Of a stretch of DNA of 26,660 nt, positions 22,563-26,042 are shown one piece after another; the first letter of the stretch is position 1, and the number at the start of each line of letters is the position of its first letter. A model generated the notes under the pieces. That model did no database searches. It saw nothing but the letters and a program-made list of their open reading frames with translations, and was not told where the DNA came from. A program made the translations under genes and the position numbers. Origin of the DNA: a virus; UHGV virus genome UHGV-0256785, one strand, 5' to 3'.

Positions 22563-25500
22563 ATGGGTAAAGGCAGCAGTAAGGGGCATACCCCGCGCGA
22601 AGCGAAGGACAACCTGAAGTCCACGCAGTTGCTGAGTGTGATTGATGCCATCAGTGAAGGGCCGATTGAAGGTCCGGTGGATGGATTAAAAAGCGTGCTG
22701 CTGAACAGTACGCCGGTGCTGGACACTGAGGGGAATACCAACATCTCCGGTGTCACGGTGGTGTTCCGTGCCGGTGAGCAGGAGCAGACACCGCCGGAGG
22801 GGTTTGAATCCTCCGGCTCCGAGACGGTGCTGGGTACGGAAGTGAAATATGACACGCCGATCACCCGGACCATCACGTCGGCAAACATCGACCGTCTGCG
22901 CTTTACCTTCGGTGTACAGGCACTGGTGGAAACCACCTCAAAGGGTGACAGAAATCCGTCGGAAGTCCGTCTGCTGGTTCAGATACAACGTAACGGTGGC
23001 TGGGTGACGGAAAAAGACATCACCATTAAGGGCAAAACCACCTCGCAGTATCTGGCCTCGGTGGTGGTGGGTAGCCTGCCGCCGCGCCCGTTTAATATCC
23101 GGATGCGCAGGATGACGCCGGACAGCACCACAGACCAGCTGCAGAACAAAACGCTCTGGTCGTCATACACCGAAATCATCGATGTGAAACAGTGCTACCC
23201 GAACACGGCACTGGTCGGCGTACAGGTGGACTCGGAGCAGTTCGGCAGCCAGCAGGTGAGTCGTAATTATCATCTTCGCGGGCGCATTCTGCAGGTGCCG
23301 TCGAACTATAACCCGCAGACGCGACAATACAGCGGTATCTGGGACGGAACGTTAAAACCAGCATACAGCAACAACATGGCCTGGTGTCTGTGGGATATGC
23401 TGACCCATCCGCGCTACGGCATGGGGAAACGTCTTGGTGCGGCGGATGTGGACAAATGGGCGCTGTATGTCATCGGCCAGTACTGCGACCAGTCGGTGCC
23501 GGACGGCTTTGGTGGCACGGAGCCGCGCATTACCTGTAATGCGTACCTGACCACGCAGCGCAAGGCGTGGGATGTGCTCAGTGATTTCTGCTCGGCGATG
23601 CGCTGTATGCCGGTATGGAACGGGCAGACGCTGACGTTCGTGCAGGACCGACCGTCGGATAAGGTGTGGACCTATAACCGCAGTAATGTGGTGATGCCGG
23701 ATGATGGTGCGCCGTTCCGCTACAGCTTCAGCGCCCTGAAGGACCGCCATAATGCCGTTGAGGTGAACTGGATTGACCCGGATAACGGCTGGGAGACGGC
23801 GACAGAGCTTGTTGAAGATACGCAGGCCATTGCCCGTTACGGTCGTAACGTCACGAAGATGGATGCCTTTGGCTGTACCAGCCGGGGGCAGGCGCACCGC
23901 GCCGGGCTGTGGCTGATTAAAACGGAACTGCTGGAAACGCAGACCGTGGACTTCAGCGTGGGTGCGGAAGGGCTTCGCCATGTACCGGGGGATGTCATTG
24001 AAATCTGCGATGATGACTATGCGGGTATCAGCACCGGCGGGCGCGTGCTGGCGGTGAACAGCCAGACCCGGACGCTGACGCTCGACCGTGAAATCACGCT
24101 GCCATCCTCCGGTACCACGCTGATAAGCCTGGTTGACGGTCAGGGTAATCCGGTCAGCGTGGAGGTCCAGTCCGTCACCGACGGCGTGAAGGTGAAAGTG
24201 AGCCGTGTTCCTGACGGCGTTGCAGAATACAGCGTGTGGGGGCTGAAGCTGCCGACGCTACGCCAGCGCCTGTTCCGCTGCGTGAGTATCCGTGAGAACG
24301 ACGACGGCACGTATGCCATCACCGCCGTGCAGCATGTACCGGAGAAAGAAGCCATCGTGGATAACGGGGCGCACTTTGACGGTGACCAGAGCGGCACGGT
24401 GAATGGTGTCACGCCGCCAGCAGTGCAGCACCTGACCGCCGAAGTCACTGCAGACAGCGGGGAATACCAGGTGCTGGCGCGATGGGACACACCGAAGGTG
24501 GTGAAGGGCGTGAGCTTCCTGCTCCGTCTGACCGTAACAGCGGACGACGGCAGTGAGCGACTGGTCAGCACGGCCCGGACGACGGAAACCACATACCGCT
24601 TCACGCAACTGGCGCTGGGGAACTACAGGCTGACAGTCCGGGCGGTAAATGCCCGGGGGCAGCAGGGCGATCCGGCGTCGGTATCGTTCCGGATTGCCGC
24701 ACCGGCAGCACCGTCGAGGATTGAGCTGACGCCGGGCTATTTTCAGATAACCGCCACGCCGCATCTTGCTGTTTATGACCCGACGGTACAGTTTGAGTTC
24801 TGGTTCTCGGAAAAGCGGATTACCGATATCAGGCAGGTTGAAACCACAGCCCGCTATCTTGGTACGGCGCTGTACTGGATAGCCGCCAGTATCAATATCA
24901 AACCGGGCCATGATTATTATTTTTACGTTCGCAGTGTGAACACCGTTGGCAAATCGGCATTCGTGGAGGCCGTCGGTCGGGCGAGCGATGATGCGGAAGG
25001 TTACCTGGATTTTTTCAAAGGAGAAATCGGGAAAACACATCTGGCCCAGGAGCTGTGGACGCAGATTGATAACGGTCAGCTTGCGCCTGACCTGGCTGAA
25101 ATCAGGACGTCCATTACGGATGTCAGCAATGAAATCACGCAGACTGTCAATAAGAAACTGGAAGACCAGAGTGCGGCAATCCAGCAGATACAGAAGGTTC
25201 AGGTTGATACAAATAATAACCTGAACAGCATGTGGGCTGTGAAGCTGCAGCAGATGCAGGACGGACGCCTTTATATCGCGGGTATTGGTGCCGGTATTGA
25301 GAATACGCCAGCAGGAATGCAGAGTCAGGTGCTGCTGGCGGCAGACAGGATTGCGATGATTAATCCTGCGAATGGCAACACAAAGCCGATGTTTGTTGGT
25401 CAGGGCGATCAGATATTCATGAACGACGTGTTCCTGAAACGCCTGACGGCTCCCACCATTACCAGCGGCGGTAATCCTCCGGCATTTTCCCTGACACCGG

Positions 25501-26042
25501 ACGGGCGGCTGACGGCGAAAAATGCCGATATCAGCGGTAACGTGAATGCGAACTCCGGGACGCTCAACAACGTCACGATTAACGAGAACTGTCGGGTTCT
25601 GGGAAAATTGTCCGCCAACCAGATTGAAGGCGATCTCGTTAAAACAGTGGGCAAAGCTTTCCCCCGGGACTCCCGTGCACCGGAGCGGTGGCCATCAGGA
25701 ACCATTACCGTCAGGGTTTATGACGATCAGCCGTTTGACCGGCAGATTGTTATTCCGGCGGTGGCATTCAGCGGCGCTAAACATGAGAAAGAGCATACTG
25801 ATATTTACTCCTCATGCCGTCTGATAGTACGGAAAAACGGTGCTGAAATTTATAACCGTACCGCGCTGGATAATACGCTGATTTACAGTGGTGTTATTGA
25901 TATGCCTGCCGGTCACGGTCACATGACACTGGAGTTTTCGGTGTCAGCATGGCTGGTAAATAACTGGTATCCCACAGCAAGTATCAGCGATTTGCTGGTT
26001 GTGGTGATGAAGAAAGCCACTGCAGGCATCACGATTAGCTGA
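22563..26042 (+). CDS. J: tail tip / host specificity protein J; the N-terminal ~800 aa are lambda-like and the C-terminal receptor-binding region is divergent
   Basis: 1159 aa; begins [41 protein letters not shown] as in lambda J; GGAG RBS. Confidence 0.9.

Follow-up and report, generated by a model that had tools for sequence, protein, structure and literature searches.

The J protein of phage lambda, whose structure has been solved (PDB 8iyk, 8xcj, and 8xck), uses LamB as its receptor, and a rearrangement of the shaft and fibre together with an opening of the tip has been described for lambda on LamB (PMC11101478). Phage 434 has a J with a lambda-type body that differs from lambda J only in the receptor-binding domain (RBD), and its receptor is OmpC. 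OmpC is also the receptor of the group formed by phage phi330 (PV189401) and the gpJ of the lambda chimera A8 (PDB 9wca and 9wcb). The evidence is genetic in the case of phi330, which gives no plaques on a ΔompC mutant unless the mutant is complemented (PMC12502783), and structural in the case of A8, since 9wcb shows A8 gpJ bound to OmpC G17 from E. coli EDL933; a publication describing 9wca and 9wcb was looked for, and none was found. The RBD of A8 is almost the same as that of phi330, and A8 delivers DNA through OmpC (PMC11338833).

Another engineered lambda chimera, gpJ 1A2, was described by Brödel et al. (Nature 2024, PMC11338833), who printed its DNA in their Supplementary Information. 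It retains the shaft and upper fibre of lambda, and its RBD is of a type found naturally in O157-type prophages, among them PPompW, VT1-Sakai/Sp15, and long-tailed Stx2a phages such as WGPS2. A8 and phi330 form a different allele group from 1A2; they accept K-12 OmpC, whereas 1A2 does not. Finally, PhiR55_1 (PV340571), derived from a prophage of the ECOR collection, is a plaque-forming phage with E. coli C as its recorded host, and its J also has 1159 residues.

The DNA analysed here, termed the window, is a stretch of 26,660 nucleotides from the virus genome UHGV-0256785. Its J combines the body of lambda J with a widespread distal module, and the RBD of this module very probably uses OmpC, in the native full-length protein as in the chimera. 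The RBD is of the same type as that of 1A2 and its natural donors, and the shaft is the longer, native one. The J of PhiR55_1 is the same mosaic over its full length (98% identity over residues 1-820, 100% in the shaft, and 97% in the RBD) and differs from the J of the window by 136 nucleotides and 24 amino acids.

The J gene and its surroundings

J lies at the end of the tail operon, which is closed by the gene order M-L-K-I-J-lom (the M-L-K-I ORFs occupy 20188-22503, and lom begins at 26110). The features concerned, all on the + strand, are as follows:

20188-20517, + strand: tail-tip gene M, 87% amino-acid identity to lambda
20517-21215, + strand: tail-tip gene L, 98% amino-acid identity to lambda
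21221-21964, + strand: tail-tip gene K, 94% amino-acid identity to lambda
21862-22503, + strand: tail-tip gene I, 80% amino-acid identity to lambda
22563-26042, + strand: gene J (tip attachment protein, central tail fibre), an intact ORF of 1159 amino acids according to the ORF list and translation
26061-26086, + strand: terminator-like hairpin with a T-run between J and lom, consisting of an 8-bp stem with 6 G-C pairs and then TTTTTTATT
26110-26660, + strand: lom (Ail/Lom outer-membrane protein), running off the end of the window; Pfam Ail_Lom, E = 3e-110, profile positions 1-183 of 199

The protein starts exactly as lambda J does and is longer than the latter (1159 versus 1132 residues; lambda reference NC_001416). 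It has the full Pfam architecture of GpJ, namely FNIII-A_GpJ (86-207), Phage-tail_3 (330-498), Ig_J (610-714), Ig_J_second (716-818), and, in its distal part, Phage_Tail_Tip (872-1000) and Ig_GpJ_C (1029-1159), all of these domains being far above the cut-offs. In architecture, gene order, and RBD fold, it belongs to the lambda-type tip attachment proteins. The J-lom order is common to the window, lambda, 434, VT1-Sakai, and PhiR55_1, and in phage 434 a terminator is annotated between J and lom, where the hairpin lies in the window.

According to the sequence-only reading, the tail module matches lambda everywhere else. This is right for the genes of the tip complex, M, L, K, and I, and for the 3' end of H, which matches lambda despite a protein identity of 26%; it does not extend to Z, U, and V (50-55% amino-acid identity), to G and T (30-38%), or to H as a whole. 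Neither the tail shaft nor the tape measure is thus lambda-like. A single block of DNA, 20053-25059, is 92.6% identical to lambda 12965-18002 and is the sole lambda-like DNA in the window. The head genes are unrelated to those of lambda, with amino-acid identities of 24% for the large terminase (lambda A) and 20% for the portal (lambda B), and the capsid gene is annotated as a fusion of a ClpP-like protease and the major capsid protein in the E. coli genomes that match the window. The endolysin region of the window looks fragmented.

Identity to lambda along J and the exchanged module

J was compared with lambda J by BLASTP and MAFFT, a codon-level nucleotide profile was computed, and the alignment included the J proteins of 434, PhiR55_1, phi330, and VT1-Sakai. 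The name of the shaft domain and the other domain terms are those of the structural study of lambda gpJ (PMC11101478). The overall identity of 84% to lambda J is distributed very unevenly, in a pattern far beyond chance:

22563-25022, + strand: residues 1-820, hub domains and FNIII-1/2, lambda-type; 98% amino-acid and 91-98% nucleotide identity to lambda J, 99% amino-acid identity to 434 J
25023-25247, + strand: residues 821-895, alpha-helical shaft, non-lambda; 36% identical to lambda, with an alignment containing 28 gap columns
25248-25397, + strand: residues 896-945, diverged upper section of the beta-prism fibre (CSF, central straight fibre); 58% identical to lambda but 96-100% identical to PhiR55_1 and VT1-Sakai
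25398-25577, + strand: residues 946-1005, lower fibre, kept in all J types; identity of 92% to lambda, 88% to 434, and 87% to phi330
25578-26039, + strand: residues 1006-1159, Ig-like RBD of the 1A2/O157-prophage type; identity of 42% to lambda, 43% to 434, 64% to phi330, and 100% to VT1-Sakai

The break with lambda coincides with the junction between FNIII-2 and the shaft, at about nucleotide 25020, directly after the motif GYLDFFKG. In the nucleotide profile, identity to lambda is 91-98% up to 24962, falls to 22-69% at 24963-25322, recovers to 74% at 25323-25442 and to 89% at 25443-25562, and then drops to 49-58% as far as the stop codon. In domain terms, the lower prism forms the conserved island, the RBD takes up the final ~155 residues, and the shaft holds the 28 residues that are extra with respect to lambda (836-856 and 860-866, nucleotides 25068-25130 and 25140-25160). 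The shaft of the window is 100% identical to that of PhiR55_1, 97% to that of VT1-Sakai, and 63%, without gaps, to that of phi330. The upper fibre segment lies inside the Phage_Tail_Tip domain (872-1000). Over the last 480 nucleotides, residues shared with lambda are encoded by a different codon in 50-75% of cases; with synonymous sites thus saturated, the divergence of the RBD is ancient rather than noise.

These results bear out what the sequence-only reading had proposed for the course of the protein, namely that the first ~800 residues are near-identical to lambda (98% over residues 1-820), that a central segment at roughly 820-930 has been replaced (36% and 58% over residues 821-895 and 896-945), and that the last ~150 residues differ from the LamB-binding C-terminus of lambda. 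The alignment with lambda and the other lambdoid J proteins gave no lambda-identical C-terminus, the RBD standing at 42%, and the C-terminal peptide that had been quoted is correct according to the ORF translation.

The proposal that this divergence reflects an exchange of host-range modules is also supported, given that the joint falls at a domain boundary and that the distal module is found on another body in VT1-Sakai. There, the distal module (residues 821-1159) is 97-100% identical to that of the window, whereas the upstream N-terminal body is only 72% identical, and the joint lies near nucleotide 24720, some 300 nucleotides further 5' than the joint of the window near 25020. That one distal unit occurs on more than one body, joined at more than one crossover point, is what lambdoid mosaicism typically looks like. 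The extent of the exchanged unit has to be redrawn, however: beyond the central patch and the final 150 residues, it takes in the whole fibre distal to FNIII-2, that is, shaft, prism, and RBD. J is a mosaic central tail fibre in which the hub and the two FNIII domains (residues 1-820) are those of lambda, while the helical shaft with its greater length, the beta-prism fibre, and the Ig-like RBD belong to another lineage that is very widespread among Escherichia prophages. It is a textbook example of how lambdoid phages exchange host-range modules. Most codon changes in the distal module are synonymous (synonymous to nonsynonymous, 12:4 with respect to VT1-Sakai and 24:8 with respect to PhiR55_1), which indicates that the module is under purifying selection.

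The 3' 1043 nucleotides of J have matches in 203 phage records. Of 5426 complete E. coli genomes, 2836 match them at a coverage of at least 80%, many with more than one copy, and the best match among these genomes is 98.3% identical. When the window as a whole is compared, the top complete E. coli genomes reach 92-95% identity over 82-88% of its length. Among species-representative genomes, the RBD type is found in those of E. albertii, E. ruysiae, Shigella (S. flexneri), and E. coli, with identities of 84-97%. Over its last 160 residues, J is 100% identical to the PPompW prophages, 98% to many long-tailed Stx2a phages of the WGPS2 type, and 97.5-99.4% to ECOR-derived phages. Broken copies of this type of J are frequent; that of VT1-Sakai is split by a frameshift, and several relatives in the databases are frameshifted fragments. 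The RBD type is therefore already known and very common: the module is present in thousands of genomes and has already been used in engineered delivery vectors.

The receptor-binding domain and OmpC

An AlphaFold2 model of residues 994-1159 is a beta-sandwich (pLDDT 78, pTM 0.70). Its best solved matches in Foldseek are 9wca and 9wcb, that is, A8 gpJ (62% identity, TMq 0.74, E = 1.7e-18 to 9wca), followed by lambda gpJ in 8xck and 8xcj (45% identity, TMq 0.77, E = 6.6e-17 to 8xck); a search with the sequence of residues 821-1159 matches 9wca at E = 7e-120. The model thus predicts that the C-terminal domain folds as the beta-sandwich of the solved gpJ RBDs.

The A8/phi330 group has this same fold, phi330 has the same long shaft, and identity over the distal module is 62-65%. 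Two loops nevertheless differ in length. One has four extra residues here (RDSRAPERW, against RTS----TY in phi330), and the other has five fewer (KHE-----KEHTD, against KHENFNSNNQQS in phi330); both are hairpins predicted by the phi330 authors to face OmpC (PMC12502783). Among the four RBD types compared (window, phi330, lambda, and 434), no gap columns fall in predicted strands, and 10-14 fall outside them. These loop indels would fit the differing ranges of OmpC alleles accepted by 1A2 and A8. The idea that substitutions, too, are concentrated in the loops was rejected after comparison with phi330, lambda, and 434; identity to phi330 is 59% in strands and 66% in loops.

The stretch equivalent to the graft in 1A2 is the following:

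25533-26039, + strand: residues 991-1159 of J, delimited by frameshift-tolerant alignment to the machine-read 1A2 DNA

The 1A2 DNA was available as machine-read text of a PDF with dropped bases, and it was for this reason aligned to the protein of the window by a frameshift-tolerant method. Over residues 942-1159, 199 of 218 codons are identical, whereas the lambda C-terminus fits the 1A2 text far worse (124 identical codons and 75 mismatches). Positions 946 and 949 of 1A2, upstream of the graft, follow lambda, and the sequence of the window is followed from about residue 991. From there on, 13 of 169 codons fail to match, 5 reading differently and 8 being garbled; these are likely to be reading errors because they occur in the same text with dropped bases and one of them reads as a stop. 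The RBD of the window thus appears to match the graft wherever the printed text is readable, although machine-read text falls short of proving exact identity.

Delivery by 1A2 depends on the OmpC allele of the recipient. It reached 5% in wild-type MG1655 and 2% in a ΔlamB ΔompC strain carrying OmpC-K12 but 93-99% in MG1655 carrying OmpC-EDL933 (PMC11338833). In the ΔlamB ΔompC strain, 20 of 23 natural OmpC alleles gave 76-99% at the highest dose, the non-permissive ones being G1 (K-12), G2, and G40 (PMC11338833). The source data of Extended Data Fig. 2c are a duplicate of those of panel b and were left out of the 1A2 evidence, with panel 8a used in their stead. For 1A2, then, LamB is neither sufficient, in view of the 5% in MG1655, nor necessary, in view of the ΔlamB strains that work (PMC11338833).

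Taken together, the use of OmpC by the sister type, the match with 1A2, and the 1A2 delivery data point to OmpC, with allele selectivity and to the exclusion of LamB, as the receptor of this RBD. The different outer-membrane receptor that had been anticipated from the C-terminus is in this way supported by published work on a chimera with a matching RBD, which is LamB-independent and OmpC-allele-dependent. Three other assignments of the RBD were rejected: the LamB-binding type of lambda and phage 21 (42% identity to lambda and saturated synonymous sites), the type of phage 434 (43% identity and 12 gap columns), and the A8/phi330 allele group itself, which, at 62-64% identity and with two indels in predicted receptor-facing loops, is rather a sister group. 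The 434 RBD belongs to the same fold family, and its low identity and other loop lengths indicate that the use of OmpC by 434 belongs to a separate RBD lineage.

Other literature was searched for a receptor of this RBD type. Phage 21 natively uses LamB. The phi330 paper cites, as reference 47, a study of the T-even phage PP01, which gives no receptor for this RBD type, and lambdoid J proteins are outside the coverage of a large receptor-screen preprint. A paper on ECOR-derived phages reports a dependence on ManYZ and no outer-membrane receptor.

Adsorption, the long shaft, and alternative readings

By analogy with lambda on LamB, the trimeric RBD would dock by way of its bottom loops onto OmpC, itself a trimeric porin; this binding may then spread the bases of the RBD, twist the prism, and flip the shaft, so that the FNIII strings are released and the tip opens. 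The native full-length J of the prophage would be expected to behave as the 1A2 chimera does, independently of LamB and in dependence on the OmpC allele.

How far the chimera can stand for the native protein bears on the first alternative, in which the receptor in the native context, with the long shaft and the phage's own side fibres, which are encoded outside the window, would be something other than OmpC or LamB, or a co-receptor would be needed, the use of OmpC being a property of the chimera. The shaft and upper fibre of the window do differ from those of 1A2, which are lambda's, and the loops predicted to contact OmpC differ from those of phi330 and A8 by the four-residue insertion and the five-residue deletion. 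However, lambda and 434, which differ only in the RBD, use LamB and OmpC, respectively (PMC11101478), so that in these two phages specificity resides in this domain alone, and a graft from residue ~991 was by itself enough to make delivery by 1A2 dependent on the OmpC allele. Such a native receptor is accordingly quite improbable. Still less probable is the idea that J is a remnant within a defective prophage, without present function, its mosaic being a matter of history only; many copies of this type are broken, as in the frameshifted J of VT1-Sakai and the frameshifted fragments of relatives, and the endolysin region of the window looks fragmented, but the ORF is intact over 1159 codons, its changes with respect to relatives are mostly synonymous, and an almost identical J serves the plaque-forming phage PhiR55_1.

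The least credible reading is that the C-terminus has diverged, by drift or by escape from lamB variants, while still binding LamB as in lambda and phage 21. A fold shared with the lambda RBD (TMq 0.77 to 8xck) would agree with it, as would the work on phage 21, in which single J mutations can add receptors without the loss of LamB. An identity of only 42% to the lambda RBD speaks against it, as does the behaviour of 1A2, which delivers at 2-5% with LamB-positive MG1655 or OmpC-K12 and works fully in the ΔlamB background when given a suitable OmpC.

With OmpC as the preferred receptor, the label "lambda J" can be replaced, for the J of this prophage, by that of an OmpC-type tip in the 1A2 allele group, and the particles of the prophage are predicted to adsorb via most natural OmpC alleles but not via LamB or K-12 OmpC. 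The importance of this beyond annotation is small.

There remains the shaft, which is 28 residues longer than in lambda. The longer form goes together with the RBD lineage in every case compared: the window, PhiR55_1, VT1-Sakai, and phi330 have it, and lambda and 434 do not. It might, for instance, help J to reach through O-antigen or capsule, or tune the trigger for OmpC in another way; the OmpC barrel is smaller than that of LamB. That the extra length is a functional adaptation rather than a neutral passenger is nonetheless unlikely; if it were one, the native J would behave unlike the 1A2 and A8 chimeras, both of which have the short shaft of lambda. The hydrophobic periodicity of the shaft at 3.5 residues, examined as a sign of a clean coiled coil, is weak, being reached by 6% of shuffles (9% for lambda). 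It may be remarked that the 28 extra residues correspond to four heptads.

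The J distal module in VT1-Sakai and a lambda-like patch

The Stx1 prophage VT1-Sakai has a J with the same distal module (J residues 821-1159) as that of the window. The annotation of its gene (AP000400; positions 1571-5043 of the record compared here) splits it into two CDSs that overlap, 'truncated by a mutation', and the well-known VT1-Sakai copy is therefore defective. Within this module, the window reads as lambda at J residues 955 and 960 (window 25425-25442), whereas the rest of the module is non-lambda. At this stretch, VT1-Sakai and PhiR55_1, which share the module, both have FMNEVFLKYLTAP, unlike the window and unlike lambda. 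A small secondary exchange within the conserved lower fibre of J may account for this patch at window 25425-25442.

Relatives of the receptor-binding domain and of the prophage

Relatives of the J receptor-binding domain (residues 1006-1159) were found on two metagenomic contigs: one (L007), whose label gives a soil MAG of a 'Proteobacteria bacterium', has a domain that is 87% identical, and the other (L011), given as a MAG of a 'Clostridiales bacterium', has one that is 63% identical. The latter probably reflects contamination or an artefact of binning. The exact window prophage was found in none of the collections searched, and its source strain is thus absent from the 5426 complete genomes and the species representatives; the best complete E. 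coli genomes match the window at 92-95% identity across 82-88% of its length, and the highest identity found for the last 1043 nt of J was 98.3%.

The head and tail-shaft modules

The modules at window 8122-20191 differ from the head and tail-shaft modules of lambda: the counterparts of lambda A (large terminase) and B (portal) are only 24% and 20% identical to them, respectively, and the tape-measure ORF (~1034 aa) is 26% identical to lambda H except in its last ~140 nt, inside which, at window 20053, lambda-like DNA starts. A ClpP-like protease/major capsid fusion is annotated for this region in matching E. coli genomes, and the ORF at 11688-13940 is taken to be this fusion.

The lysis region and an anti-repressor-like ORF

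Two tRNA genes lie beside the lysis genes:

3272-4318: DNA methyltransferase gene
4487-4640: tRNA-Thr(TGT) and tRNA-Gly(TCC), between the DNA methyltransferase gene and the lysis genes

Stx phages carry tRNAs and stx at this position; no stx gene was seen among the window ORFs scanned. The endolysin region (window 5568-6432) has a fragmented appearance. The ORF at 5852-6235 (127 aa) matches an endolysin profile of length 292 at positions 38-166 only, and has short overlapping ORFs on both sides (5568-5855 and 6178-6432). A frameshift in a lysis gene could explain this and, if true, would bear on the functionality of the prophage. Elsewhere, the ORF at 2328-2699 (123 aa) may be a truncated gene of an anti-repressor family, since it matches only the C-terminal part of that family (positions 70-187 of 187).
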